A stretch of DNA of 64,000 nucleotides. Origin: Gemmatimonadota bacterium (lineage in GTDB: Bacteria > Gemmatimonadota > Gemmatimonadetes > Longimicrobiales > Gaopeijiaceae). Below are positions 7,527 through 23,640 of the stretch, in pieces. A program made the position numbers and the translations under genes. Position 1 is the first letter of the stretch. Every line of letters starts with the position of its first letter. The stretch spans positions 33,980 to 97,979 of the forward strand of contig JADFNK010000001.1 in the NCBI GenBank assembly GCA_022563405.1, given 5' to 3'. Under the pieces are notes generated by a model. The model made no database searches, was not told the origin of the DNA, and worked only from the letters and a program-made list of their open reading frames with translations.

Positions 7527-8524
7527 TCGTTCCCGCCCGTCCGAGCCTCGATCTCCCTGTTGGTGAGAGCCAGCTCGACGAGCAACTCCTCCAGTTCGTT
7601 ATCGTACCGGTCCTGGTCGATCTGACCCCTCAGCGGGAGGAGCTCCTCGATGCGCCGCTCCACGTCCGCCTTCCGCACCAAGATGGCTCGGAGCTCCTCA
7701 TCGTCGGTGGCGCGCGCCGCGGCGAGGGTCGGGTCGCCGGCCAAGAACATCGTCCGTGCGAGAGCACCATCCAGCGCGTCCACCAAGTCGGTGCTCCCTT
7801 CTCCATCGCCGTTGTCGTCGAGCACGGGGTGCTCGGTGGCGATCCGGTTCGACGTCTCGTATTCCCGCGTGACTTCGGAGCGCGCGAACTCGAATGCCTC
7901 CCAGACCGACACGCGCCCATCCTTGTTCAGATCGGCGTCTTCACCGGTGAACGCGTCGATGAAGTAGCCCCCGAAGATCGTTTCGTTCCTCTCCCTCCCG
8001 GTCCTCGTGGCGGTGACGATCGTACGTCCCTCTCCTGAGAGGGCCTTCACGAATTCTCCGCTCGCACTCGCGAGGTTCATGAACGCCACTCGCCGACCTG
8101 ACAGCTGATCGAGGTGCAGGGCGAAGTCCTCCGCGGTGAGGTCGGGCCCCGGAAGGTTGAAGCGAGACTGTCCGGTGGAGTAGCTGCCGTGCCCGATCAG
8201 CACCACGAAGATGTGATCGCCGGGCTGGGAGTTGGAAACCAGCTTGGCGAAAGCCAGGTCGACGTTCTCTCGGGTCGAGCGGTCCTGGATGCGCACATCG
8301 GCGGTCGGGTCCTCGCCCAAGTAGATGATGTGATCGGCGGGTAGGCCGAACTTCTCACTCGCCACAGCGACGAGAGCGCTGCCCCACTCCGTGAATCGCT
8401 CGCTGTACATTGGGTCCCCGCCCAGACCCGTGATGACGAGGAGGTGGGGGTCCTGCCCCGCTACCGGTCGAGCCACAGCCGTCGCCGCCAAGAGCAAGAC
8501 GATGCCAAGAGTGCCCCTAGACAT
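7523..8524 (-). CDS. Legumain/C13-like fold protein with Cys->Ser at the nucleophile position, an EF-hand loop and a C-terminal coiled coil
   Basis: Start moved to the internal MSRGTLGIVLLLAATAVA, which removes the overlap with the upstream gene. GDHIFVVLIGHGS aligns to legumain DHVFIYFTDHGS. AFMNLASASGEF aligns to FYIEACESGSM. DLNKDGRVSVWE is a canonical 12-residue EF-hand loop. Confidence 0.7.
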   Translation of the reverse strand: MSRGTLGIVLLLAATAVARPVAGQDPHLLVITGLGGDPMYSERFTEWGSALVAVASEKFGLPADHIIYLGEDPTADVRIQDRSTRENVDLAFAKLVSNSQPGDHIFVVLIGHGSYSTGQSRFNLPGPDLTAEDFALHLDQLSGRRVAFMNLASASGEFVKALSGEGRTIVTATRTGRERNETIFGGYFIDAFTGEDADLNKDGRVSVWEAFEFARSEVTREYETSNRIATEHPVLDDNGDGEGSTDLVDALDGALARTMFLAGDPTLAAARATDDEELRAILVRKADVERRIEELLPLRGQIDQDRYDNELEELLVELALTNREIEARTGGNE

Positions 8525-8535
8525 CACCGGGGAGA

Positions 8536-10827
8536 TCAAATGAGACTCCTCTTCCTCCGGTAGCCCCACTCACCGGCCATCAATCCCAAGACGAGAAACA
8601 GCAGGATCGGCATGTCCCAGAGATCCCGTTCCTCGGTGAGCGTGACGCCGGCCCCGGTAAAGCTGATGTCCTCGGCGAGGGTCGCCACATTCTCCGGCGT
8701 GTAAAACAGCCCGCCGGTCTGGTCCGCAATCCGGCGCAATGTAGTCCCCCGCATGCTCGCGTCGAAGTACTCGTCGGCCGAGGGCGCCGCCTCCACGTAG
8801 GTGACGGCGGTCCCGATGGTGTCTCCGCCGCGCGACGCGAGTATGGAGACTTCGTACAGCCCCGGGGAGGTGGTCAGAAAACGACCGCCGTATTGCCCGT
8901 CTTGTTCTACATCCCATTCCAGGGTGATGGTCATGGAGTCGCCGGATGGATCGCGTACGACGGCGACGACGTTGGCGTTGTTTACGGCCGCATACGCCGA
9001 GTCTCCCACCTCGACCAGGATATTCACGGGTTGCCCCGGCTCCACCAGCTCACGCTCGGTTTGGGCCCCGACCTGCTCGGGCACACCGTCCGTGAGCCAG
9101 CGGAGAAGCTGCCGCCAGAACGTCTCGTGGGTCTGGTCTTCGAGCGGGATGTCGGCGTGCATCTGCCAGATCCAGGAGTCCTGGATCGGCAGCACGACCA
9201 CCTTGCCGCGGCCATAACGATGGAAGGCGAGTACCACCTGGCGCTCCCGGTCCTCCTCCGTACCACCGGTCAAGAGGCTGGTGGCACCGGGTTTGAGACG
9301 TGTGATGGGATTGAGGGTCGTGACGGACGGGAGGGCTTCCCACCGTTCAACGACCGCCTCGCTGTTGTCGGCTCCGAGTTGCGTAGCGGGGTGCGTGAGA
9401 CCCGCGCGCGTGGGGGTGATGAAGAGCTCGTCGAAGTAAGGCCCGACCCCTGAGCTCAGTTCGTCGTCCAGAAAGACGGGTAGGACCTCCGCCAAGCGCG
9501 TGCCTTGGTAACCTCCCTCCGCGAACGCGTTGCGGCCGCCCAGGAACAAGAGGCCGCCGCCCCGCCGGGACACGAAGTCCGCGATCATGTCGAGCTGATC
9601 GTGCGTGAAGAAGCTCGCCTCCACACTCCCGAGGATCAGCGCCCGGTACCGGAACAGCTCTTCCCGTGTCTTCGGGAAACCGGCCGCGAGCTCCTCGGCG
9701 TTGTCGACGTCCAGACGGAGGAATTTGCCTTCGGCCGTACGTTGAAGAAGCACAACTTGGAGGTTCTCGTCTTCAGAGACCGCACGGCGGAGGAATTTCA
9801 CCTCCCAGCGAGGCTCCCCCTCGAAGTAGAGGATCTTTTCCGCGTCGCTCACGACGTTGACGAGGACGTCCCGAACGTTGTTCTCCGTCACCCGCTCACC
9901 TGGCTGAATCGAGACTCGGAATCGGAGCAGACGGGGTCCCGCGTCCTGGGCCTGGATCCGGACCCTGACCACCACCGGTTCGCCATCGCGCTCGAAGGTC
10001 ACGTCCTCGGAGGCCAGAAGCAGGCCTGTGTCCTCCACCACGAGTTGGACCGTCCGCCCCGAATACCCCCGGTGTGACACGATGACGTCTACCACCAACG
10101 ACGTTCCTGCGAGGACCGTCCTCGGCATCTCCACGCGGCTGATTTGCACGTCCGGCGTAAGTTCCTCCTCACCGAGGCCCACTGTATAGACGGGAATGCC
10201 GGCAGCCTGGAGCGGCAAGAGCGATTCGGCCAAGACCTCGCCGGAATTGTCGGCACCGTCCGAAAAGACCACCAAACCCGAGATCGGAACGCCGGCCAGC
10301 TCCTCCTGAGCCCGCACCATAGCGTTACCGAGGTTCGTCGCCGTACCCGAGTACGACAGATCGGCCATGTCGTTTAGACGGCTCGCGTCGCGGCTGAAAC
10401 GGAAGAAGCGGAGCGTGAACTTCTCTTCCAGAGCCGTCAGAAGCTCGCTGCCTTCGCTGCCGAAGGTCGCCTGGACGAAGTCGCTTCTGGCCACTCCGTC
10501 TTGATCGGTGATGCGCATGCTTTGCGAATCGTCGATCAGAATACCCACGAAATTCCGCTGTGGAACGACCGAAGTGAGTATCAGCGTAGGCCGGAAGAGA
10601 ATGAAGACGAGGATCGCCACCAACCCGAGCCTCAGCGCCGCCATCACACCTCGGTCCCATCGGCTGCTGGCTCCCCTGGCCGCTCTATACGTCAAAAGGG
10701 CAGGCAGCGTAACCACCGCCACACCGCCCAGAACGAGCAAGACCGGCCAAGGCGAGGCGAACGTGAAGTCCCCCTCCTGGAACAGGAGCAGCCTGTACTT
10801 AAAAAGGAACTCGAAGATCGTGTCCAT
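8536..10827 (-). CDS. Large membrane-anchored VWA-domain protein (Bat-operon type, GATase1-like middle region)
   Basis: 763 aa with N-terminal TM helices. FVGILIDDSQSMRI is a VWA MIDAS motif. LILGSVEASFF...GGGLLFLGG resembles a ThuA/GATase1-like module. Confidence 0.85.
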   Translation of the reverse strand: MDTIFEFLFKYRLLLFQEGDFTFASPWPVLLVLGGVAVVTLPALLTYRAARGASSRWDRGVMAALRLGLVAILVFILFRPTLILTSVVPQRNFVGILIDDSQSMRITDQDGVARSDFVQATFGSEGSELLTALEEKFTLRFFRFSRDASRLNDMADLSYSGTATNLGNAMVRAQEELAGVPISGLVVFSDGADNSGEVLAESLLPLQAAGIPVYTVGLGEEELTPDVQISRVEMPRTVLAGTSLVVDVIVSHRGYSGRTVQLVVEDTGLLLASEDVTFERDGEPVVVRVRIQAQDAGPRLLRFRVSIQPGERVTENNVRDVLVNVVSDAEKILYFEGEPRWEVKFLRRAVSEDENLQVVLLQRTAEGKFLRLDVDNAEELAAGFPKTREELFRYRALILGSVEASFFTHDQLDMIADFVSRRGGGLLFLGGRNAFAEGGYQGTRLAEVLPVFLDDELSSGVGPYFDELFITPTRAGLTHPATQLGADNSEAVVERWEALPSVTTLNPITRLKPGATSLLTGGTEEDRERQVVLAFHRYGRGKVVVLPIQDSWIWQMHADIPLEDQTHETFWRQLLRWLTDGVPEQVGAQTERELVEPGQPVNILVEVGDSAYAAVNNANVVAVVRDPSGDSMTITLEWDVEQDGQYGGRFLTTSPGLYEVSILASRGGDTIGTAVTYVEAAPSADEYFDASMRGTTLRRIADQTGGLFYTPENVATLAEDISFTGAGVTLTEERDLWDMPILLFLVLGLMAGEWGYRRKRSLI

Positions 10828-13366: not shown

Positions 13367-15202
13367 GTGCCGCCTGAGTTGGCGAGGGCCCGTTCCGCTG
13401 ATCTCCCACCTTTTAAGGAGCGAATGATCGCGCTCCGCCTCATCCCGAGGTTTCTGGGCATGGTGTGGAGGGTTAAACCCGCCTATGCCGCCGCCATTCT
13501 TTCGTTCCGGGTCCTGCTGGCGTTTTCGCCCGCGGTCCAGCTCTGGATCGGAAAGCTCATCATCGACGGGGTTCTGGCGAACATCGGGGCGACTACTCCC
13601 GACTGGACCGGCCTTTTCCGCTTGGTGGCATTGGAGTTGGTGGTGGCGCTCGCCTCGGACGTGTTACAACGCACGTCGAATCTGCTCGAGAGCCTGCTCG
13701 GCGATCTGTTCGGCAATCGGCTTTCAGTACAGATCATGGAGCACGCGGCCACCCTGGACCTGGAGAACTTCGAGGACCCCGAGTTCTACGATTCGCTGCA
13801 GCGGGCGCGCCAGCAGACCGTCGGACGGATCGGGCTGTTGGCGGTGCTACTCGGCATGGGGCAGAGCGCGTTGAGCCTGATTACGCTCCTCGGGGTCCTC
13901 ATCGTCTTCAACGGGTGGCTCGTGCTGATGCTCGTGCTTGCCGTACTGCCGTCGTTCATTGGAGAGACACACTTCGCGGGTCTCTCGTATTCGCTGCTCT
14001 ACAAGTGGACGCCGGAGCGCAGGGAGCTCGACTATCTACGTTATGTAGCGACCAGCGACGTGACGGCGAAAGAAGTGAAACTCTTCGGCCTCGCCGACTA
14101 CTTCACTCGCAAGTACGAGCGACTCGCGGACGAATTCTACGAGGCCAACCGAGCCCTCTCCATCAAACGGGCCGCCACGTCCGGTGGGCTCACTGCGGTA
14201 TCCACGCTGGGGTACTACGCGGCATACGTCTTTATCATCGTCGACACAGTGCGTGGATTTCTCACACTGGGCGAGCTCACCATGTTGGTCGGAACGTTCC
14301 GGCAGAGCCGCGGCATGATCAGTGGGATCCTGCTTCGGTCCGCCGACATGTATCGGCAGAGCCTGTTCCTGAGAGATCTGTTCACCTTCCTCGAGATGAA
14401 ACCCCGCACGGCGAGCCCTGAACATCCCGTGCCGGTGCCCCGGCCGATCCGGGACGGCGTGATTTTCGAGAACGTGGGCTTCCGCTATCCGGACAAAGAG
14501 GACTGGGCCCTCAGGGGTGTTTCGCTGAGGATCGGCGCGAACGAGCGTGTGGCCCTCGTGGGTGAGAACGGCGCCGGCAAGACGACGCTGGTCAAGCTCC
14601 TGGCCCGCCTCTACGATCCGACCGAGGGGCGGATCCTGTTGGATGGTATAGACCTCCGCGAATACGACGTGGACGAACTCCGCGGTATGATCGGCGTCAT
14701 CTTTCAGGACTTCGTGCGATACGACCTGAAGGTGCGTGAGAACATCGCGGTCGGGCAGATCGACGCGATCGGCGACCAACCTCGTATCGTGCGGGCCGCA
14801 GAGATGAGTCTCGCCGACGGCGTTATCGCCGGTTTGGAGAGCGGCCTGGATCACATGCTCGGGCGCCGCTTCAAAGGCGGGGCCAACCTGTCCGGGGGTG
14901 AGTGGCAGAAGGTGGGCCTGGCGCGAGCGTACATGCGCGACGCCCAGATCCTCATTCTCGACGAGCCGACGGCCTCCCTCGATGCCAGGGCTGAATATCA
15001 GGTGTTCGAGAGGTTCGCGGACCTCACGGAAGGCAGGATGGCCGTGCTCATCAGCCACCGGTTCTCGACGGTGAGGATGGCGGACCGCATCGTGGTGTTG
15101 GAGGACGGCACCGTCACCGAAGACGGGACTCATGACGAGTTGCTCGTTCTCTCCGGGCGTTACGCGGAGCTGTTCACACTCCAGGCCGCAGGGTACCGGT
15201 AA
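13367..15202 (+). CDS. ABC transporter, fused permease/ATPase (exporter type)
   Basis: 611 aa with an N-terminal 6-TM region. Walker A GENGAGKTT, signature LSGGEWQKV, Walker B ILILDEPT. Confidence 0.9.
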   Translation: MPPELARARSADLPPFKERMIALRLIPRFLGMVWRVKPAYAAAILSFRVLLAFSPAVQLWIGKLIIDGVLANIGATTPDWTGLFRLVALELVVALASDVLQRTSNLLESLLGDLFGNRLSVQIMEHAATLDLENFEDPEFYDSLQRARQQTVGRIGLLAVLLGMGQSALSLITLLGVLIVFNGWLVLMLVLAVLPSFIGETHFAGLSYSLLYKWTPERRELDYLRYVATSDVTAKEVKLFGLADYFTRKYERLADEFYEANRALSIKRAATSGGLTAVSTLGYYAAYVFIIVDTVRGFLTLGELTMLVGTFRQSRGMISGILLRSADMYRQSLFLRDLFTFLEMKPRTASPEHPVPVPRPIRDGVIFENVGFRYPDKEDWALRGVSLRIGANERVALVGENGAGKTTLVKLLARLYDPTEGRILLDGIDLREYDVDELRGMIGVIFQDFVRYDLKVRENIAVGQIDAIGDQPRIVRAAEMSLADGVIAGLESGLDHMLGRRFKGGANLSGGEWQKVGLARAYMRDAQILILDEPTASLDARAEYQVFERFADLTEGRMAVLISHRFSTVRMADRIVVLEDGTVTEDGTHDELLVLSGRYAELFTLQAAGYR

Positions 15203-16857
15203 CCTTCGCCGGGCGGATGGCTCCACCGACCCATCCGGGTGCCTCTCCTCGAGCGGGGGGCCTGTCGGGAGGCCGGCGTATGAAGGTCTTCGAAGACGTC
15301 GAATAACGCCGGATCGAAGATGATTCCGCGATCCTCGCGCATGACCGAGAGAGCGTGGCCCGGCGTCAATCCGGCGCGGTAGCTTCGGCCGGAGGTGAGT
15401 GCGTCGAATACGTCGGCAAGGCAGAGGATCCGGGCTGAAAGAGGAATGTCGTCCCCGGCCAGGCCATCCGGGTACCCTGAGCCGTCCCAATGTTCATGAT
15501 GGTGCCGGACCATCGGTCGGATGTCCCAGGGGAACTCGATCTCCCGGAGTAGATGCACCCCCGCCTGGGGATGCCGCTTCATGATCGCCCACTCCTCGGC
15601 GGTAAGGGGGCCGGGTTTGTTCAGGATGGACGAAGGCACGACGATCTTGCCCACGTCGTGGAGCAGAGCGCCCATCCGGAACCACCTCAGGCGCTCCGAG
15701 TCGATCCCTGAAGCCGACGCCAGAGCACACGCGTAGGAAGCGACACGCTCACAGTGTCCTTGCGTGTAGTGGTCCTTGGACTCGATCGACTCCCCCCAAG
15801 TGCGGACCACGTCCAGGAAGCGGCGCTCCAGCTGCGTGACCCGCTCGCGGACTTCCGCGAGATCGTGTTTCGCGTGGAAGTTCGAGTAGAGTCGGAGACT
15901 CTCGTTCAGGGCCTTGAGGGTGTCCTGGTTTCGGCCCTGCTTTCTATAGACCTCGGCCAACTCCCGTGCCGTCTCGGCGGCCAGAAGTGTGTCCCCTTCT
16001 CTGTCGGCCACCTTGCGTGCCTGTGCGAGCGAGTCGAGAGCCAACTCGAGCCGACCCGTGGATTGGTAGATGGCCCCGTAGTGCTTGAGAATCTCACCAG
16101 TCCATCGCCCACCCGAGACGTCCCGGGAGAGGCTACAAGCTCGATCGCACGACTCGTGGGCACGCTTGAACTCCTTCCTGGTGATCCACATCCGGGCCAA
16201 GTTGACGTGACTGAGCACCTGATGGTCGATTTCTCCGGACTGCTTACATCTTCGCCCGGCTTCCTCGAGGGCGATTTCCGCGTCGTCCCACTCGCCCAGG
16301 TCGGCGTGTAGACGGCCGATATTGTTGAGAAGCGGACCGACGCGGTCGTCCTCTCCAAGCTGGTCGTAGGCCTCTTTGCTGGACTGATACCGCAGGAGTG
16401 CCTCGGTGAAATCCCCCTGGATGTTCGCCACAACGCCCAGGTTCTGGTGGATCATGGCGGCTAGGGTGTCGTACCCCGTCGCCGTCGACGCACGCTCGAG
16501 GCTCCAGGTGTAGTGGTCGGCCGCCGCCTGGAGGTTTCCACGCATCTGCTCCACGATGCCTTTTCCGTTCACCGCGTGCGCCTGGCCCAACACGTCACCG
16601 TGGGCCTCGGCGACCCCGAGTGCGGCCTCGTAGCAGTCCATGGCCGCGGTGAGGTGCCGGTCCTCGTAGTGTGTCCGGGCGATCCACCTCAAAATCGCGC
16701 TGGCGAGGGTCGGGTGCTTGGTCTCGTCGAGGGTGCGGAGCGCGGTCTCGTACAGGGAGCGGGCGCGGCTCCGGCGAGCCTCCCGTTCCGCACCGCGCGC
16801 TTGGGCGATCAGCTCTCGGACGGCCTCCGGAATACCCTCGTCGGTGGTCGAGTCCAC
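15160..16857 (-). CDS. TPR-repeat sensor fused to an HD-GYP domain (putative c-di-GMP phosphodiesterase)
   Basis: 565 aa. C-terminal LLHDVGK and HHEHWDGSGYPDGL are HD-GYP motifs. The N-terminal ~330 aa is a TPR array paralogous to the 17928..18989 product. Confidence 0.88.
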   Translation of the reverse strand: MDSTTDEGIPEAVRELIAQARGAEREARRSRARSLYETALRTLDETKHPTLASAILRWIARTHYEDRHLTAAMDCYEAALGVAEAHGDVLGQAHAVNGKGIVEQMRGNLQAAADHYTWSLERASTATGYDTLAAMIHQNLGVVANIQGDFTEALLRYQSSKEAYDQLGEDDRVGPLLNNIGRLHADLGEWDDAEIALEEAGRRCKQSGEIDHQVLSHVNLARMWITRKEFKRAHESCDRACSLSRDVSGGRWTGEILKHYGAIYQSTGRLELALDSLAQARKVADREGDTLLAAETARELAEVYRKQGRNQDTLKALNESLRLYSNFHAKHDLAEVRERVTQLERRFLDVVRTWGESIESKDHYTQGHCERVASYACALASASGIDSERLRWFRMGALLHDVGKIVVPSSILNKPGPLTAEEWAIMKRHPQAGVHLLREIEFPWDIRPMVRHHHEHWDGSGYPDGLAGDDIPLSARILCLADVFDALTSGRSYRAGLTPGHALSVMREDRGIIFDPALFDVFEDLHTPASRQAPRSRRGTRMGRWSHPPGEGYRYPAAWSVNSSA

Positions 16858-16861
16858 AATC

Positions 16862-17902
16862 TCAAACGCCGTCTTCCAGGCCGTACTCGCGGATCTTCCG
16901 GTGGATCGTCGGCCGTGAAATGGCGAGGATGCGTGCGGCGGCGCTACGATTGCCCCTGGTCATCTTCAGTGTGATGCGCAGCGCCTCGGCCTCAACCTCC
17001 GCCAGGGTCATCCCGATGTCGGGAATCTGGATGGCCTGTCCGGGATCGTCTTTTCTCCCGCGTCCGTTCCCATGCCAGTCGAAGATACTCAGGTGCGTGG
17101 CGTTGATCTCGGGCCCATCACAAAGGGTGATGGCTCGCTGCATCACGTTCTTCAACTCCCGGACATTGCCGGGCCAATTGTGGAGCTTCAGTACGTCGAT
17201 TGCGTCGGCGCTGAGGGGTTTGGGAGCCACTCCTATCTCATGGGAGATCTGCTCCATGAAGTAGCGCGCCAAGATCACCTGGTCGTCTCCGCGCTCCGAG
17301 AGTGGCGGGATGTTGATGCGTAGAACGTTCAGTCGGTAGAACAAGTCCTCCCTGAAGCGCCCCTCGCTCAGGGCGTCCTCGAACGACCCATTGGAGGACG
17401 CGATCACGCGGCACCGCGCCTCTATCTCGTCCGTGCCTCCCACCCGGCGGAAGAGCCGTTCCTCGAGCGCTCGCAACAGCTTCGGCTGTAGGTTGGGCGG
17501 TAGCTCACTGACTTCGTCGAGAAAAAGGGTTCCGGCGCCCGCGAGCTCGAGCAGACCGAGTTTTCGGACTCGGGCGTCGGTGAAGGCGCCCCGCTCATGA
17601 CCGAAGAGCTCTGACTCCAAGAGGTTGGCGGGGATCGCCGCGCAATTCACCGTGACGAAGGGCTCTTGCGCCTCGGAGCCTGCGTAGTGAATACCCCGTG
17701 CGAAGAGCCCTTTGCCTGTCCCCGTGGCTCCCACGATGAGCACGGTCGTGCCTTTGCGAGTAGCGATGCGCATGGAGAACTGGATCGCTTTGCGAAGGGA
17801 GGCGCTCCGACCCACGATGGCTTGGAAGCCGATGTCTGTGGCGTTCTTGTCCGACGGCGCCAAGCCTCCGTTGACTTCTCTACTGGCTAGTTGGTAGCTC
17901 AC
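16862..17902 (-). CDS. Sigma-54-dependent transcriptional activator (AAA+ and Fis-type HTH only, no sensory domain)
   Basis: ORF 16862..18040. I prefer the in-frame GTG at 17902, which is preceded by AAGGAG 12 nt upstream and does not overlap the TPR gene. Walker A GATGTGKG, GAFTDA loop, Walker B LFLDEV, HTH GNRSAAARILAISRPTIHRKIREYGL. Confidence 0.88.
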   Translation of the reverse strand: MSYQLASREVNGGLAPSDKNATDIGFQAIVGRSASLRKAIQFSMRIATRKGTTVLIVGATGTGKGLFARGIHYAGSEAQEPFVTVNCAAIPANLLESELFGHERGAFTDARVRKLGLLELAGAGTLFLDEVSELPPNLQPKLLRALEERLFRRVGGTDEIEARCRVIASSNGSFEDALSEGRFREDLFYRLNVLRINIPPLSERGDDQVILARYFMEQISHEIGVAPKPLSADAIDVLKLHNWPGNVRELKNVMQRAITLCDGPEINATHLSIFDWHGNGRGRKDDPGQAIQIPDIGMTLAEVEAEALRITLKMTRGNRSAAARILAISRPTIHRKIREYGLEDGV

Positions 17903-17927
17903 GGTACGATTCCACTCCTTGAACGGA

Positions 17928-18989
17928 TCATTGGGCTTCAGACCGCATTTGCTCCAGACGCTCCTGAACGGCCGTGGCGTCGAGGCCGGCGTTCGTCTCG
18001 GTGAAGAGCTTGTTCGCCCGCTCGAAGAACTCCCGAGCACTTTCGAACTGCCTCGCCTGTGCGTGTGTTTCTCCCAGCTCCCTAGCCGCCTCCGCAGCCA
18101 GGAGTACGTCCTCGCTTTCCTCGGCCAACTTGTGGGATTGGATCAACGTTTCGGTCGCCATGGACAATTCGCCCTTGGCTCTCTGGATCATACCCAGGAA
18201 CTTGAGCCCGTCCGCCCTCCGGAGGGGGTCGCCCCTCTCGTCGGCGATCGCCAGGGCGCCGGAGACGTGTAGCTCGGCGTCGGTCCACCGCTCGAGTTCT
18301 ATGTAGACCTCGGCAAGGTTGGACTCCACGAGGGCCTGCGTATGGAGGTCCATCCGGTTTCTTGCGATCTCGAGGGCGCGCAGGAAGTACTGCTCGGCTT
18401 CCGCATACTTCCCGAGGTCCGTATGGAGCATACCGAGGTTGTTGAGGACCCAGGACATCCCTTCCTGGAAGCTGCCTTCTTCAAACTGGCGTAAGCTCGC
18501 CCGGTAGCGGACCAGCGCCCCGTCCAGGTCTCCCTGAATGTTCGCGAGGACGCCCAGGTTCTGCTCCACCATGCCGGCCAAGCGGTGCTCTCCGGCGCCG
18601 TCGGCTTGACGGGCTGCTTGCCGGTAGAGGCCTTGTGCCCTTTCCACGTCCCCCCTGCGTTGTGCGATGATGGCCAGGCAGTTGAGGGCGTGGGCCTCTC
18701 CCGCCTGGTAGCTGACCTTGCGCGCCAAGGCACGACTTTCTTGGTAGTGGAATTCGGCGGCGGCGGTTTGCCCAAGCTCCCTACGCGTCGTTCCGAGCCA
18801 ACGGAGGATGTCCGCTCGGAGAGGAGATGGCTCGGAGTCCGGCAGCAACGAAATGGCTGCCTCCAACTTGGACAGCGAGTCACCGAGGGCCCCTCGGGTT
18901 TCTGCCTCGCGTCCCTCGTGGGCGAGCCTGCTGGCCTGAGCTTGTCTCACGTTCGTGGAGTCGCTCTGGCTGTCGACCTTAGGCTTCAC
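17928..18989 (-). CDS. Stand-alone TPR-repeat protein (paralog of the HD-GYP protein's N-terminal half)
   Basis: 353 aa. LANIQGD, LNNLGMLHTDLG and LLAAEAARELGE match VANIQGD, LNNIGRLHADLG and LLAAETARELAE in the HD-GYP protein. Confidence 0.8.
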   Translation of the reverse strand: MKPKVDSQSDSTNVRQAQASRLAHEGREAETRGALGDSLSKLEAAISLLPDSEPSPLRADILRWLGTTRRELGQTAAAEFHYQESRALARKVSYQAGEAHALNCLAIIAQRRGDVERAQGLYRQAARQADGAGEHRLAGMVEQNLGVLANIQGDLDGALVRYRASLRQFEEGSFQEGMSWVLNNLGMLHTDLGKYAEAEQYFLRALEIARNRMDLHTQALVESNLAEVYIELERWTDAELHVSGALAIADERGDPLRRADGLKFLGMIQRAKGELSMATETLIQSHKLAEESEDVLLAAEAARELGETHAQARQFESAREFFERANKLFTETNAGLDATAVQERLEQMRSEAQ

Positions 18990-19048
18990 AGACCTCTATC
19001 TCCGGGCGGGTGCGAAATAAAACAGCGTGAAGACCACTTCGTCCCTAC

Positions 19049-19558
19049 CTACCCTGACGCCACCGCAAACCCACGGAGTTCGCGGATCTCGCCGGGCGCA
19101 AGTTCAAAGAGGATAGTGCCCCCGTCATATAGGACGGGGAAGATCTCTAATATTACGGGGTCGGACGTGGAACCTCCCTCCAAGTAGACGCCGAGGATCT
19201 CCAACCATGGTCGAGCTAGCCTCTCGCCATCAATACGAATCTCAATGGGAACGGCCAAGGGCAATCCAGGAACTCCGAACTCGAAGGCCACAACCGAACC
19301 CTCGAGGACTCGGGCTTCGATCAACACGCTCTCCGAAACGGCCCCCTCCGGGAAATGGATCTCGGTGCCGGCGCCCAGGAGCTCGATTACGCCACCCGCC
19401 GGACCGATCATTTGGTTGGCCACGATTTCCTCAACCGGCTCACGCCACTCTAAGACGCCGAGGCCGGGTGCCGGGGCCGTAGGGTGATCTGCACACCCGA
19501 ACAGACCCAGCATGAGAGTCACGGGGATCGGATACCAAGCCTTCCTCAACAGCTTCAT
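19049..19558 (-). CDS. Hypothetical lipoprotein
   Basis: ORF 19049..19573. I prefer the ATG at 19558 (MKLLRKAW...), which has GAGGAG 8 nt upstream. Lipobox LGLFGC. Confidence 0.6.
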   Translation of the reverse strand: MKLLRKAWYPIPVTLMLGLFGCADHPTAPAPGLGVLEWREPVEEIVANQMIGPAGGVIELLGAGTEIHFPEGAVSESVLIEARVLEGSVVAFEFGVPGLPLAVPIEIRIDGERLARPWLEILGVYLEGGSTSDPVILEIFPVLYDGGTILFELAPGEIRELRGFAVASG

Positions 19559-19616
19559 CTTTCCACTCCTCAATCAATCGATGGTTCCCCGACTGCAACG
19601 GGTGAAGCGCCTCTTG

Positions 19617-19632
19617 AGCAATGTTGGTGCCA
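19617..19632 (-). promoter_or_regulatory. Sigma-54 (-24/-12) promoter
   Basis: The minus strand reads TGGCACcaacaTTGCT, a full match to TGGCAC-N5-TTGCW. It lies 59 nt upstream of the lipoprotein ATG, inside an AT-rich intergenic island. Confidence 0.6.
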
Positions 19633-19747
19633 AAGATTGAAAGTAACGTAAACCATTGTAGGTCAACCAGTTATGACCGATCCGAGTTAAGACCTCCGGG
19701 GTTCAGAGTGTGTCATAGTATTACACTTTCTGGGGATACGCAATGTT

Positions 19748-19776
19748 ATGTTACACTAGTGCGATATCTGTAACAT
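19748..19776. promoter_or_regulatory. Candidate upstream activator site: dyad ATGTTACA-N13-TGTAACAT
   Basis: Perfect 8-bp inverted repeat 116-144 bp upstream of the -24 element. Extra half-site-like copies: TTACACT at 19721 and 19751, TGTAAC at 19779. Confidence 0.4.
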
Positions 19777-19794
19777 TATGTAACGTCGCTTGCA

Positions 19795-20268
19795 CTATTC
19801 GGTGCTTGTGATGCGCACGGACTCCATGACAACCGGTTCGAGTGGGATGTCCCCGGGGCCGGTGGCCGTGGCACCGATCGAGCGGACCGTCTCCATACCC
19901 TCGATCACCTTGCCAAACACCGCGTGTTTGCCGTCCAGCCAGTCCGTGGCGGCGAGGGTCACGAAGAACTGAGATCCGCCGGTGTTCGGCCCGGAATTCG
20001 CCATCGAAAAAACACCCTCCGAGTCGTGTGACAGCTCAGCGTGGAATTCATCGGCGATCGTATAACCTGGCCCGCCTCGACCGTTGCCATCGGGACAGCC
20101 GCCCTGGAGCATGAATCCTTTGATCACGCGGTGGAAGACGATTCCGTCGTAGTAGCCCTTCTCGACCAAGTCGATGAAGTTCTTCGTGGTAGCAGGCGCG
20201 CCCCCCTCGAAGAGTTCAACCTGGAAATCGCCGAGGTTGGTCGTGAAGTGCGCGAGTCGGTTTGCCAT
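19795..20268 (-). CDS. Peptidyl-prolyl cis-trans isomerase, cyclophilin type
   Basis: 157 aa. FHRVIKGFMLQGG...GGPGY...FSMANSGPNTGGSQFFVT is the cyclophilin signature. Confidence 0.95.
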   Translation of the reverse strand: MANRLAHFTTNLGDFQVELFEGGAPATTKNFIDLVEKGYYDGIVFHRVIKGFMLQGGCPDGNGRGGPGYTIADEFHAELSHDSEGVFSMANSGPNTGGSQFFVTLAATDWLDGKHAVFGKVIEGMETVRSIGATATGPGDIPLEPVVMESVRITSTE

Positions 20269-20421
20269 GGTGATCCTGTGATTGAGGTGTCGGCCGAAGT
20301 CGCACGCTCTTCGACCGTGAATCAGATAATCCCGAAAGAGTCCGATCGAGTCCAGTGCGGAAGGCTGTTGCAGGAGTAGAGCGGGCCGTGATGCAGGAGC
20401 GGGCGACGGGCGTCCGGTCCG

Positions 20422-20661
20422 TCAGCCCGGACGTGTGTTGGGCCGATCGATCACCAGGCCCGTGCCACAGGTAGCACAGATCAGCCAGATTCGATCTCTT
20501 ACGTAAGGGACATCCTTCCGTGGAGGGACGTCGGTGCGATCGAAACGTCCCTGACACCGAGGGCAAACCGGGTCGGACCCGCCGACGAGAGCGGCGCGGA
20601 TACGTTCGACTTCTTCGGGTTCGATCTTCTTGTTCACGTGGTCAAAGTCTCTCGAGTTCAT
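20422..20661 (-). CDS. Small zinc-ribbon protein (hypothetical)
   Basis: 79 aa. CPRC...CATC four-Cys arrangement. Shares the DPxCPRxQG motif with the 54896..55297 product. Confidence 0.5.
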   Translation of the reverse strand: MNSRDFDHVNKKIEPEEVERIRAALVGGSDPVCPRCQGRFDRTDVPPRKDVPYVRDRIWLICATCGTGLVIDRPNTRPG

Positions 20662-20802
20662 TTCGAGTTAGCCATTTGTTTACAGCCAGCCAAAGGACGT
20701 TAACTCCGACGGGTGAGGAAGGGTCCGAAAACGTATCGTTGCTCCACGGTTAGCGGCGTGCTATCGTCCCCGTAGTACCAATGGATCAGACGCGAGAGGC
20801 GA

Positions 20803-21018
20803 GTGGCGAAAGAAGCGATTGAAATCGAGGGATTGGTCAGCGAAGTGCTTCCCAACGCCCGATTCCGCGTGGAGTTGGAGAACGGCCATGAGGTCTTGGC
20901 GTATCTCTCAGGTAAGATGCGGCAACACTACATTCGCGTGCTCGAAGGTGATCGCGTGAAGGTGGAGTTGTCGCCTTACGATCTCAGTAAAGGCCGTGTA
21001 ACCTACCGTTACAAGTAG
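20803..21018 (+). CDS. infA: Translation initiation factor IF-1
   Basis: 71 aa. [39 protein letters not shown]...RVTYRYK is unmistakable IF-1. Confidence 0.95.
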
Positions 21019-21020
21019 GC

Positions 21021-21304
21021 CTACTTCGCTTCGAGCAAGCCGTCGTCGAATTTCACGATGAACGAGGCGATCAGCGCGAACCAGACGCCGATTCCCGTTA
21101 TGCCGGCCGCCAAGAGAACCATCGTAAAGTTCCGGCCAAGCTCGGACAGGGGGCCGACCTCCCGGAAACCCACTGCGGTCACGGTAATGACCGTCGTATA
21201 AGGCCTTCTCGCCAAGGCCGCCCCTCGATGGACACATAGCCGACGATCCCAACGGCGGTCAGCACAACGAGATAGGCGATCGCACCCAAGAATCGGAGGA
21301 TCAA
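21021..21304 (-). pseudogene. Minimal 2-TM potassium-channel-like gene, apparently frameshifted
   Basis: C-terminal part in the frame of ORF 21021..21368: YTTVITVTAVGFREVGPLSELGRNFTMVLLAAGITGIGVWF (pore helix, filter-like segment, TM2). The N-terminal TM1 (LRFLGAIAYLVVLTAVGIVGYVSIEGRPWREGL) is in another frame. The junction is near 21199-21204, where the DNA reads CCTTAT but CTTTAT would keep the frame. Confidence 0.5.
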
Positions 21305-21594
21305 GAACGCGCATCGCTCGACGAGTTCTCCGCGTGAAGCTGACCTGATCGCAGGGAACCGCTCCCACGGGAAGCTAGGCAGGACGCGGGTTTTCGGCCG
21401 TTTCTTTACTTGACGCTCTGTTCAGCGGGCCTTACCGTTGTCCTAACTGATGCTTGCCAGAGCCGCTACGGTCCCTTTGTGGGTCCGAATGCCCAGCGTG
21501 AAAGGCCCGACACGCAGAGGCCCGGACCGCAGCTGGAGGAAGGCCGGCGTAGGCCGCGAAGTCAAGAGGCATTACCCCTTTTGAGGAGTAACAA

Positions 21595-21876
21595 ATGAAC
21601 AAATCCGATCTAGTAGACGCCCTTGCCGACAAAGCCGGAATGACCAAAGCCGATTCGTCGCGGGCTCTGGACGCCCTGTTCGGTTCGGGAGGTGTGATCG
21701 CTCGCGCCTTGAAGGCCGAAGAGCGTGTGCAGATCACTGGCTTCGGCACGTTCGAGGCGAAGCATCGCAAGGCTCGCATGGGCCGGAATCCTCGTACTGG
21801 TGCCACGATTCATATTCCGGCATCGAAGACTCCGGGGTTCCGAGCCGGTAAGGGCTTCAAGGACGCCATCCAGTAG
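21595..21876 (+). CDS. hup: HU-family DNA-binding protein
   Basis: 93 aa. MNKSDLVDALA...GFGTFEAKHRKARMGRNPRTGATIHIPASKTPGFRAGK. Confidence 0.95.
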   Translation: MNKSDLVDALADKAGMTKADSSRALDALFGSGGVIARALKAEERVQITGFGTFEAKHRKARMGRNPRTGATIHIPASKTPGFRAGKGFKDAIQ

Positions 21877-21921
21877 GATCCCCCTTTGGGTAGTCCCCAT
21901 AGGGGAATCGAAGGATCGGAT

Positions 21922-21957
21922 AGAGGCCACGCCCCTCGGGCGTGGCCTCTTCTTTCC
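21922..21957 (+). terminator. Rho-independent terminator after HU
   Basis: 12-bp perfect stem AGAGGCCACGCC / GGCGTGGCCTCT, loop CCTCG, followed by TCTTTCC. Confidence 0.7.
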
Positions 21958-22041
21958 CCCCTTCCCGGCTGTGCTGGCTCTGATGCGGCGCGTCCTCTCC
22001 TGACTTGGTTTCGCGTCCTGACTTGAGTTTCGCGAACGCGG

Positions 22042-23640
22042 CTACTGCCGGTGGCTGCTTCCGCGGGCACTGCCTCGGTTACCAGCACGGCTAGTACCGG
22101 GCTTACCAGCGCCGCTACTACCGCGGTCGTAGTCCACTCTCGCGCTCCGGCCACGGATGCTCGTGCCGTTCACGGCTTTGATGACTTTCTCCGCTTCAGA
22201 CGGCCTGACTTCGACCAGGGAGTAGGTATCACGTATTTCGATCTTTCCGAACGACGATCCGTCCACCCCGGACTCTCCGGCGAGCGCACCCAGCAGATCT
22301 CCGGGTTTAACACCCTCCATCTCACCGATGCTCACGAAAAGCCGAGTCCACCCGTCGGTTCCGGTAGCCTTTTCTGCGCGAGCCGCCGTGCCTTGCGGTA
22401 CTGTGGCGCCCGCGGGAGCTTGAGGAATGAGTAGAGCGAGCGCGGCCGCGGCGAGTTCCTGCGGGCTGAAGCGTTCCAGCAGAGGCTCCAGGACTAGGTA
22501 GAGCGGGGCGAGATCTCCGCTCGTGGCGGCTTCTTCGAGGCGATCGCGAATCACACTGATTCGGTCCTCGACCACTGAGTCGGGCGGAGGCAGGGGCCTC
22601 ACACGGTACCCGGTGCGACGGGCCGTATCTCTAAAGTGGGGGACTTCGCGGGGAAGGAGCATCACTGTGGCCTGTCCTCCAGCACCATGGCGCCGATCCA
22701 TAGAGTCCGGGTCCGCTGGACAGTCCAAGCTCACGGTCGCCACCTCGGCGGGAGAAGTGCTCTCGTTGAGAGCCTGTCGGGCCGGAAGGGCGTCCACGGC
22801 CAACCAGATCGGAGCCGTCTCATCACCCGGGGAACCCGCCATGAACCCGTGGAGGGTCAGGAAGTCTCCCACATCGGCGGCCCGGTCGGTGGAGCTGCAA
22901 AACAACAGCACGTGGCGAGCGCCGTCTTCGAGGAGCTCGGACACCAGCGGAGCCAAGGCATCCACTTTGTCCTCTCCTGTGATACGGTACCGCAACTCCC
23001 CTCGGTCCGGTGGCTTCGCGGTGGAGCCCTCGATGGCTGGGGTGGGCGGTATGCGGATCGCCTTCGGCACATGTTGGGCGACTAAGGCCCGGATTGATTC
23101 GGGGACCGGCTGACTCAAGATGATCCGTTGGGCTCCAGCCGGCACATATTCGAACAACGCGCCCAAGGTATCGAGGCCTGAAATCGTTTCGATCGCGCTG
23201 GCACCGTCGACGACCAAGAACTGGACGCCCTCCAGCGTGAGACTCGATCCGTCGACCGCTGATTTCACGTCGCTCGGGGTCGCAAAAAGGACATCACATC
23301 GCTCGGGTAACAGCCACGCTCCACCGAAAGCTCCGACCGAATGCCCGGTGGCGGAGGCGATGCGTGCCAGTGAGTCGGCGAGGCCGGTGGCACCAGCGGT
23401 TGTCGGCACCAGAACGAGTGCCCCGGGGCGGCCGGCTTGGGGCTCGGTTTTGTCCAGTATCGCCGTTCCGTATGCCAGCAGCGTTCCGGCTCCCGGGCCG
23501 ACGGCTCCCAGGAGGTTGTTGCCTCGCCGGAGAAGGGGAATGGCCGTCCGCTGAAACTCGGTGGGCTCCTCGAAGCCCTCGGCGGAAAGTGCTTCGGTCA
23601 TTTCCGAGGGTAACTCCAGATCCTCGAACGACTGCATCAT
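22042..23640 (-). CDS. DEAD-box/DbpA-like protein with degenerate ATPase motifs
   Basis: 532 aa. Q-motif PTEFQRTAIP is kept. Walker A reads GPGAGT (no Lys), motif II reads VVDGAS (not DEAD), motif III reads LSQ, and motif VI reads RRHGAGG. The C-terminal DbpA-type RNA-binding domain (GWTRLFVSIG...IEIRDTYSLVEV) and an RG-rich tail are present. Confidence 0.85.
   Translation of the reverse strand: MMQSFEDLELPSEMTEALSAEGFEEPTEFQRTAIPLLRRGNNLLGAVGPGAGTLLAYGTAILDKTEPQAGRPGALVLVPTTAGATGLADSLARIASATGHSVGAFGGAWLLPERCDVLFATPSDVKSAVDGSSLTLEGVQFLVVDGASAIETISGLDTLGALFEYVPAGAQRIILSQPVPESIRALVAQHVPKAIRIPPTPAIEGSTAKPPDRGELRYRITGEDKVDALAPLVSELLEDGARHVLLFCSSTDRAADVGDFLTLHGFMAGSPGDETAPIWLAVDALPARQALNESTSPAEVATVSLDCPADPDSMDRRHGAGGQATVMLLPREVPHFRDTARRTGYRVRPLPPPDSVVEDRISVIRDRLEEAATSGDLAPLYLVLEPLLERFSPQELAAAALALLIPQAPAGATVPQGTAARAEKATGTDGWTRLFVSIGEMEGVKPGDLLGALAGESGVDGSSFGKIEIRDTYSLVEVRPSEAEKVIKAVNGTSIRGRSARVDYDRGSSGAGKPGTSRAGNRGSARGSSHRQ

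Follow-up and report, generated by a model that had tools for sequence, protein, structure and literature searches.

The window analysed here is a stretch of 64,000 nucleotides from a Gemmatimonadota bacterium of the Longimicrobiales, family Gaopeijiaceae (GenBank assembly GCA_022563405.1, contig JADFNK010000001.1, positions 33,980 to 97,979 of the forward strand), and the system in question is a group of four co-directional genes on its minus strand, designated L, T, E and H in the order in which they are read. L encodes a lipoprotein, T a stand-alone tetratricopeptide repeat (TPR) protein, E a sigma-54 enhancer-binding protein (EBP) without sensor domain and H a protein in which a TPR domain precedes an HD-GYP domain, the latter being a putative phosphodiesterase of cyclic di-GMP (c-di-GMP). 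The coordinates are collected in Table 1, and the gaps L/T, T/E and E/H measure 59, 25 and 4 nt, respectively. Most of the Gemmatimonadota lineages sampled have the module formed by these genes, and genomes with two or three copies are frequent; a further copy was sought in the 64-kb window and none was found there.

Table 1. Features of the L-T-E-H locus; positions count from the first letter of the window.
Feature	Position	Strand	Basis or location
L, lipoprotein gene	19558-19049	minus	open reading frame list
T, stand-alone TPR protein, 353 aa	18989-17928	minus	open reading frame list
E, EBP without sensor domain, 346 aa	17902-16862	minus	open reading frame list
H, TPR-HD-GYP protein	16857-15160	minus	open reading frame list
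Sigma-54 (-24/-12) element TGGCACCAACATTGC	19618-19632	minus	59 nt upstream of the L ATG
Candidate enhancer (upstream activating sequence, UAS) cluster: three AT-rich TGTAAC-N5-GTTACA-type palindromes	19709-19785	minus	sequence reading and window scan
UAS palindromes	19769-19785 (2 mismatches), 19739-19755 (3), 19709-19725 (3)		77-153 nt upstream of the -24 element

The promoter and its conservation across Gemmatimonadota

The sequence TGGCACCAACATTGC that precedes L is the sole match without mismatch to TGGCAC-N5-TTGC in the 64 kb; for the two strands together (128 kb), chance alone would give about 0.1 perfect matches. Farther upstream lie the three palindromes of the candidate enhancer. No sigma-70-like promoter was found within the operon, terminator-like sites occur there at the level expected from shuffled sequence, and Rfam at gathering thresholds returned no RNA element in or near the operon (positions 14000-23000).

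Related loci were gathered by scanning an alignment of T against one genome per prokaryotic species, which gave 149 relatives, the best 80 of which were inspected; other loci were found by means of H, and the genes were annotated by tblastn together with a hidden Markov model (HMM) of the small upstream protein L. The best 78 loci among the 149 relatives all come from Gemmatimonadota, the named homologues of T belong to this phylum only, and the closest relatives of T are encoded in metagenome-assembled genomes (MAGs) of Longimicrobiales (87% identity), the order to which the window is thereby assigned. A T profile run against 1.8 billion representative proteins gave 288,211 matches, which were swamped by giant multi-TPR proteins and are uninformative on distribution.

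The annotated loci, 84 distinct ones and all from Gemmatimonadota, hold T, E and H contiguously in 63 cases and T and H without E in 30, with both arrangements in 16. According to the family HMM, L lies immediately 5' of T in 82 of 96 cases, and the stop and start codons at the T/E and E/H junctions often overlap in the relatives. In Gemmatimonadaceae the two module types are found in tandem, as in L-L-T-H-L-T-E-H. The flanking genes vary from one lineage to another, and the order L-T-E-H recurs both in the loci found by T and in those found by H, so that the module as such is the unit; this synteny amid unrelated neighbours rules out that the four genes came together by chance.

The promoter is shared to a similar extent. 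When the regions within 320 nt upstream of the module starts were scanned for -24/-12 elements (at most two mismatches, GG and GC fixed), such an element was found in 73 of 81, compared with 0.065 expected per region, nearly always 40-95 nt from the start codon and including the modules that do not contain E. The loci found by H carry the same element upstream. Of 74 modules, 47 have a palindrome of the type TGTAAC-N5-GTTACA (at most two mismatches) ahead of the sigma-54 element, compared with about 2% of random 260-nt windows that contain one, and the spacing of these palindromes from the promoter is fixed within each lineage (62-64 nt in Gemmatimonadaceae, 100-140 nt in Longimicrobiales). 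Since both the sigma-54 promoter and the palindromic upstream site are conserved, self-activation of the operon from this promoter is well supported, and we consider it very probable on comparative grounds.

These results bear on most of what the preliminary description of this DNA had put forward. That four co-directional genes follow one another with gaps of 4-59 nt is borne out by the open reading frames; that the genes remain together in relatives, for which a neighbourhood search had been suggested, agrees with the counts for T-E-H and for L before T given above; and the proposal that the operon is driven by its own product from the sigma-54 promoter is sustained, at the level of sequence comparison, by the perfect element in the window and by its recurrence, with the palindrome, among the relatives. 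The treatment of the lipoprotein as a passenger has to be abandoned, as L is, together with H, the most constant member of the module, and ZU5-like. L and H are found without T and E in two of the loci obtained through H (L087 and L089), and in L086 L stands beside a fusion of H with REC and GGDEF domains (6001-8694), again without T or E. As L-H occurs alone or in the form of this fusion, L and H form the invariant core of the module, and T and E are frequent additions to it. A further arrangement is seen in L088, where L-T-E-H is followed by a separate REC-GGDEF gene (6647-7603) that overlaps the stop codon of H. A second contig bearing T was recovered in four MAGs; at least three of these MAGs pair an L-T-H contig with an L-T-E-H contig, and in the fourth the second contig stops after T.

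Some irregular loci were observed as well. In L001, on a 2.3-Mb contig that encodes a T protein 83% identical to that of the window, a deletion (8089-9305) fuses about residue 70 of the EBP to about residue 205 of the TPR-HD-GYP protein, and an IS1595-family transposase gene lies just 5' of L; either E and most of the TPR domain of H have been knocked out here by nature, or the assembly is in error. L032 and L036 have some 1.4 kb of additional sequence between E and H. In approximately 22 Gemmatimonadaceae loci (L003, L006, L007, L039, L044, L051, L055, L056, L058-L060, L062, L064, L071, L078, L079 and L081-L084) an orphan gene for an OppA/DppA-like solute-binding protein (SBP_bac_5) is placed directly 3' of H, on the same strand and at a distance of 40-180 nt; no permease genes stand alongside, and the window has no such gene. 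At the window locus, the 3' end of H overlaps by 43 nt (15160-15202) a convergent ABC-exporter gene on the plus strand (13367-15202). A perfect TGTAAC-N5-GTTACA palindrome, TGTAACCTACCGTTACA, is found at 20997-21013, about 1.37 kb upstream of the sigma-54 promoter, where about 0.008 would be expected in the window. It lies between two convergent genes, an ion-channel-like open reading frame (21021-21368, minus strand) and an apparently infA-like gene on the plus strand. It may be due to chance, or it may serve as a remote binding site or as a weak hairpin that terminates transcription in both directions.

The four encoded proteins

T is made of TPR repeats alone over its whole length (Pfam TPR_12, E 1e-29; TPR_MalT). 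In H, the TPR region covers approximately residues 1-345 and is followed by the HD-GYP domain at residues 358-518 (HD_5, PF13487, E 6e-40; HD also matches) and by a low-complexity tail. The two proteins align with 31% identity over 307 aa with one gap (BLASTP, E 1e-39), and the three peptide pairs that the preliminary description had quoted for a paralogy of T with the N-terminal half of H are found in the translations; this paralogy can be taken as established. Within the T class and within the H class the TPR sequences share 43-65% identity and between the classes 25-28%, and the nearest neighbour of a sequence never belongs to the other class. T and the TPR domain of H are two ancient paralog classes, both kept across the phylum.

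The structure of T was modelled by AF2 with high scores (pLDDT 95.2, pTM 0.90) as a solenoid of 17 helices. The top 24 PDB matches of the model in Foldseek are TPR domains of LGN/Pins with extended peptides (20-23% identity), and domain III of MalT and a phage Rap protein with its pheromone are also among the matches. T is thus predicted to be a cytoplasmic, LGN/Pins-like superhelix of about eight TPRs. Four asparagines at a spacing of 40-41 residues (N103, N144, N184 and N224 in T, corresponding to N97, N139, N179 and N219 in H) are present without exception in the 99 T and 82 H-TPR sequences compared, and an R-W pair is likewise common to T and to the TPR domain of H. In TPR proteins of the LGN type and in other peptide-binding TPRs, an asparagine ladder forms the lining of the concave groove and holds extended peptides by their backbone. 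We infer from the shared ladder that T and the TPR domain of H bind the same kind of ligand, a precondition for any model in which the two compete.

The HD and HHEHWDGSGYP motifs of the HD-GYP domain are intact in the window H, and the full set (HD...HD.GK and HHExxDGxGYP) is intact in 81 of 86 orthologues; the last 45 or so residues form the low-complexity tail, the length of which varies among orthologues. About eight homologues of H, at around 50% identity (P0203, P0205, P0212, P0219, P0229, P0237, P0238 and P0262), carry additional REC-GGDEF domains and reach about 900 aa as TPR-HD-GYP-REC-GGDEF fusions. The presence of REC-GGDEF fused to homologues of H or encoded beside them provides a link with c-di-GMP: it points to c-di-GMP, rather than cGAMP or another cyclic dinucleotide, as the probable substrate of the H family, and it suggests that the module can hold genes for both the synthesis and the hydrolysis of this compound.

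E is by sequence an ordinary AAA+ protein of the NtrC family, made up of a leader of 28 aa, the AAA+ domain, a lid and a helix-turn-helix of Fis type. Its Sigma54_activat domain (PF00158) occupies residues 29-196 (E 5e-60) and is followed by AAA_lid_14 and by HTH_8 at 299-340; the AAA+ motifs (Walker A, Walker B and arginine fingers) are present, with GATGTGKG, LFLDEV and FREDLFYRLN, and the closest sequences in the PDB are NifA, NtrC1, ZraR and FleQ. With an AAA+ domain, a C-terminal helix-turn-helix, and an upstream site with a -24/-12 promoter, E has the predicted attributes of a bacterial EBP. The loop that contacts sigma-54 (17600-17620, minus strand, residues ~105-110) reads GAFTDA instead of GAFTGA, with F and T retained; GAFTDA is the form of 56 of 64 E orthologues and GAFTGA that of five. 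Just 28 residues precede the AAA+ domain, hence E has no sensor domain, and the same holds for all 64 orthologues, in which the Walker A motif is located about 55 residues from the start. The earlier view of an activator without a sensor of its own is consequently valid for the window and throughout the family.

The start of E is a GTG codon at 17902 and is backed by the conservation of the N-terminus VSYQLASR among orthologues. The corresponding peptide (17878-17902, minus strand), of the form (M/V)(S/T)YQLA(S/A)(R/H/Q), occurs in 25 of 63 modules, from Longimicrobiales and many Gemmatimonadales, and the roughly 18 residues after it form a variable linker. A conserved terminal peptide carried on a variable linker has the usual appearance of a short motif bound by another protein, which the E peptide may well be.

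L opens with a signal peptide that leads to the lipobox LFGC, MKLLRKAWYPIPVTLMLGLFG-C. Among 29 homologues C22 hardly varies, and lipoboxes are found family-wide. L gives no Pfam match above threshold. In six of six L members, ZU5 is the best or only weak match, at the same profile positions and with 13-20 bits against a cut-off of 21, and three more homologues are annotated as "ZU5 (faint)" in precomputed Pfam data. An AF2 model of L (pLDDT 65.5) retrieved ZU5 domains of ankyrin, UNC5b and ZO-1 as the top 12 PDB matches in Foldseek (probability 1.0, TM about 0.5), followed in rank by GAIN domains. L is therefore described as an exported lipoprotein with a predicted ZU5-like beta-sandwich.

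The C-terminus of the L family is distinctive. The tripeptide HFS is found in the last 45 residues of 98 of the 108 members and in the last 14 of 72 of them, typically about seven residues from the C-terminus, the usual tail being HFS(G/R)Y(M/A/V/I)(L/V)A(S/T)(G/D)-stop (for example HFSRYMLASG or HFSGYAVASG). PIDD, Nup98, CARD8 and NLRP1 cleave themselves at HFS or SFS, where the ZU5-type domain ends on its C-terminal side (PMC3210808), and bacterial ZU5 autopeptidases are known on secreted or surface proteins (PMC3482391). The window L ends in ELRGFAVASG, without HFS, and the motif is also lost in the closest relatives (L001, L008 and L009) and in L017, L019 and L021. The C-terminus of L (19049-19078, minus strand) resembles the N-terminus of E, with S-G/R-Y-x-L/V-A-S-G in the former and SYQLASR in the latter, and the tail of L in L086 is SGYQLASG. 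Of the 108 L proteins, 71 have the pattern [YF]x[LVIM]A[ST] at the C-terminus; E has it at the N-terminus, and in T and H its frequency is 8e-5 per residue. This likeness could reflect mimicry or chance. A co-variation of the two ends, G-Y tails being found with SYQLAS EBPs and R-Y tails with the other leader, was considered as further evidence and set aside, being inseparable from phylogeny.

Possible control of the activator and alternative readings

Given the lack of a sensor domain, the activity of E would have to be set in trans, and the two paralogous TPR proteins are the likeliest candidates. A template for part of such a control is provided by RcbA/RcbB of Vibrio vulnificus, in which a c-di-GMP enzyme is repressed by its own TPR domain and the repression is relieved by a free TPR protein through a TPR-TPR contact (PMC12282931). 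In the reading that we favour, and to which we give an even chance when it is taken as a whole, L-T-E-H is a phylum-wide, self-activating sigma-54 signalling operon in which E is set in trans by the TPR proteins and T gates H. E would bind TGTAAC-N5-GTTACA and drive L, T, E and H in a positive loop, and would also activate in trans the paralogous operons that do not contain it. Its activity would be set most likely by T and H, possibly by holding of the N-terminal peptide, as SYQLAS on a variable linker would fit the asparagine-ladder groove of both proteins, the genes of which flank that of E. The partner switch between TPR proteins and EBP that the preliminary description had put forward is plausible in this light. 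T would gate the HD-GYP domain of H through a TPR-TPR contact like that of RcbA and RcbB, and the operon would have two outputs, the ZU5-like lipoprotein, which reaches the envelope, and a lowered level of c-di-GMP.

Several facts weigh against this scheme. The SYQLAS N-terminus is restricted to just those 25 of the 63 modules, and the EBPs of Gemmatimonadaceae have another conserved leader. E is missing from the L-T-H and L-H modules, from which it follows that the TPR proteins have a role independent of E. Some sensor-less EBPs are controlled mainly by their abundance, so that a regulator acting in trans is not obligatory. The sample itself has a bias, since all loci come from MAGs or metagenomes and were found by T or by H and not by E, the former among the best 80 of 149 relatives.

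The most serious alternative we regard as possible and clearly less probable than the scheme just outlined. Here E would be constitutively active and controlled only by its amount, doing no more than placing the operon under sigma-54. T and H would make up an independent c-di-GMP module after the manner of RcbAB, with L as a co-expressed envelope product, and there would be neither contact between TPR proteins and EBP nor a partner switch. Such an arrangement is in line with the sigma-54 promoters that T-H and L-H modules keep in the absence of E, with the MAGs in which at least three of four second T contigs pair L-T-H with L-T-E-H, with the tandems of Gemmatimonadaceae, where one E could serve several promoters in trans, and with the fact that RcbAB functions without an EBP. 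It accounts less well for the position of E, inserted in 63 loci precisely at the junction of T and H, where stop and start codons overlap or nearly do so, and for its terminal peptide, the variable linker of which is the usual signature of a motif recognised in trans; moreover, a positive loop without any input would be bistable and uncontrolled. By analogy with RcbA/RcbB, H is a likelier primary partner for T than E is, since the module can do without E, L-T-H being found in 30 loci and L-H alone elsewhere.

Two other proposals we hold to be improbable. According to one, E would itself sense c-di-GMP in the manner of FleQ or VpsR, H would feed back by lowering this compound, and the TPR proteins would sense an input for H only. 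The same operon does encode an HD-GYP enzyme, joined in some loci by a REC-GGDEF cyclase, and over the AAA+ domain E shares 46% identity with FleQ, to which it is no closer than to other members of the NtrC family. The c-di-GMP-binding residues listed for FleQ (PMC8335546) were located in E through an alignment for which the FleQ sequence was verified against the PDB. A FleQ-type pocket could be discarded, because R144, R185, N186, E330 and R334 of FleQ correspond to Q27, R69, G70, Y214 and Q218 of E, so that one residue out of five is kept, other binding modes remaining conceivable. The retained arginine is common in EBPs generally.

According to the other, which appears just as doubtful, the operon would contain a peptide loop: L would cleave itself at HF|S, much as a strand is exposed or set free by GAIN and FIIND domains, and the octapeptide S-[G/R]-Y-x-[L/V]-A-S-G would re-enter the cell and displace the N-terminus of E from the grooves of T and H, turning on the operon and re-setting the phosphodiesterase. 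The idea draws on the HFS site about seven residues from the C-terminus of most L proteins and the autocleavage known at such sites, including that of bacterial ZU5 domains; on the pattern shared by the L tails and the E N-terminus and rare in T and H; on the likeness of the SGYQLASG tail of L086 to the SYQLASR of E; on the OppA-like gene after H in about 22 Gemmatimonadaceae loci, a candidate route of uptake; and on the peptide-groove type of the TPRs of T and H. Against it stand the absence of HFS from the window L and its closest relatives, which would leave at best a degenerate or differently processed version here, and the lack of the SYQLAS N-terminus in the EBPs of Gemmatimonadaceae, the very clade that carries the SBP genes. 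The tail may be just the last core strand of the ZU5 fold, and the motif match was defined after the fact. An anti-phage defence system was also considered and rejected, as PADLOC gave only generic matches to TPR, AAA+ and HD domains.

Significance and relation to described systems

Gemmatimonadota are abundant in soils and sediments, and to our knowledge their signalling is almost unstudied. The operon combines three things that have not been described together, namely a self-activating sigma-54 operon with a sensor-less activator, two paralogous TPR domains, one free and one fused, that accompany a phosphodiesterase of c-di-GMP, and a lipoprotein of ZU5-like type. Should E be under the control of the TPR proteins, they would represent a new class of EBP anti-activator or co-activator, and sigma-54 would be tied directly, at the level of transcription, to the turnover of c-di-GMP. 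Mutagenesis could be aimed at the predicted promoter, the enhancer site, the N-terminal peptide of E and the asparagine ladder. ZU5 lipoproteins that carry HFS would lend themselves as an uncomplicated bacterial model of autoproteolysis of the ZU5/GAIN type and, if the peptide loop were true, the module would be a peptide-based autoinduction circuit in a diderm phylum, by which the operon and c-di-GMP are switched together.

As regards described systems, the preliminary description had not recognised the module in any of them, and this impression persists: in the literature searched, no published description of an HD-GYP/TPR/EBP/sigma-54 module in Gemmatimonadetes was found, with RcbAB as the sole analogue, no PADLOC system corresponds to it, and NCBIfam provides an equivalog for none of the four proteins, every score being far under the cut-off. 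The individual parts nevertheless have several known counterparts.

Among the more distant ones are the RRNPP sensors of Firmicutes (Rap, NprR, PlcR and PrgX), to which T is comparable as a cytoplasmic receptor of TPR type and, in Gemmatimonadaceae, by the adjacent Opp-like gene. It differs from them in having neither a fused effector nor a helix-turn-helix, in the absence of a small pro-peptide gene and in belonging to a diderm phylum, and a peptide signal is in its case hypothetical. The best structural match to T is LGN/Pins (GPSM2), which likewise has eight TPRs with a conserved asparagine per repeat in the groove; LGN/Pins is, however, a eukaryotic scaffold for spindle orientation, and the likeness is one of fold and groove type, not of orthology. 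L resembles the domains of the ZU5, FIIND, GAIN-GPS and Nup98 group in its predicted ZU5 fold and, for most members, in the presence of HFS where PIDD and Nup98 (HF|S) and CARD8 and NLRP1 (SF|S) are cleaved. In contrast to these, L is a small, single-domain lipoprotein with about seven residues beyond HFS, and the window copy is devoid of the motif.

E can be compared with two groups of activators. FleQ/FleN and VpsR are, like E, activators of the sigma-54 family tied to c-di-GMP turnover, and the AAA+ identity of E with FleQ has been given above; E differs in lacking four of the five c-di-GMP residues of FleQ, a FleN-type ATPase and a REC-like N-terminal domain. PspF with PspA, and HrpR-HrpS with HrpV and HrpG, are sensor-less EBPs controlled by separate proteins, HrpV and HrpG forming a partner switch. 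E is similarly devoid of an N-terminal regulatory domain and would similarly be controlled by a protein encoded at its locus. The candidate regulators are here TPR proteins and not PspA/ESCRT-III-like or HrpV-type proteins, neither of which is found in the module; in addition, the gene for E lies inside the operon that it is predicted to activate, and a c-di-GMP enzyme is coupled to it.

The closest described analogue, and the best mechanistic template for the T-H pair, is RcbAB. In both systems the gene for a stand-alone TPR protein lies beside that for a TPR-fused c-di-GMP enzyme (RcbB has about seven repeats), T and H standing side by side in 30 loci and having just E between them in 63. 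The differences are nonetheless considerable: H is an HD-GYP phosphodiesterase and RcbB a GGDEF cyclase, RcbA has an extra C-terminal region and T is made of TPRs only, the paralogy of T with the TPR domain of H is clear, the unit also comprises an EBP and a ZU5-like lipoprotein under a sigma-54 promoter, and the phylum is another one. The module is like RcbAB in its logic and, judged by its domains, is not a member of that system. Taken together, the parts come from known families, and it is their combination that is specific to the phylum and apparently undescribed.

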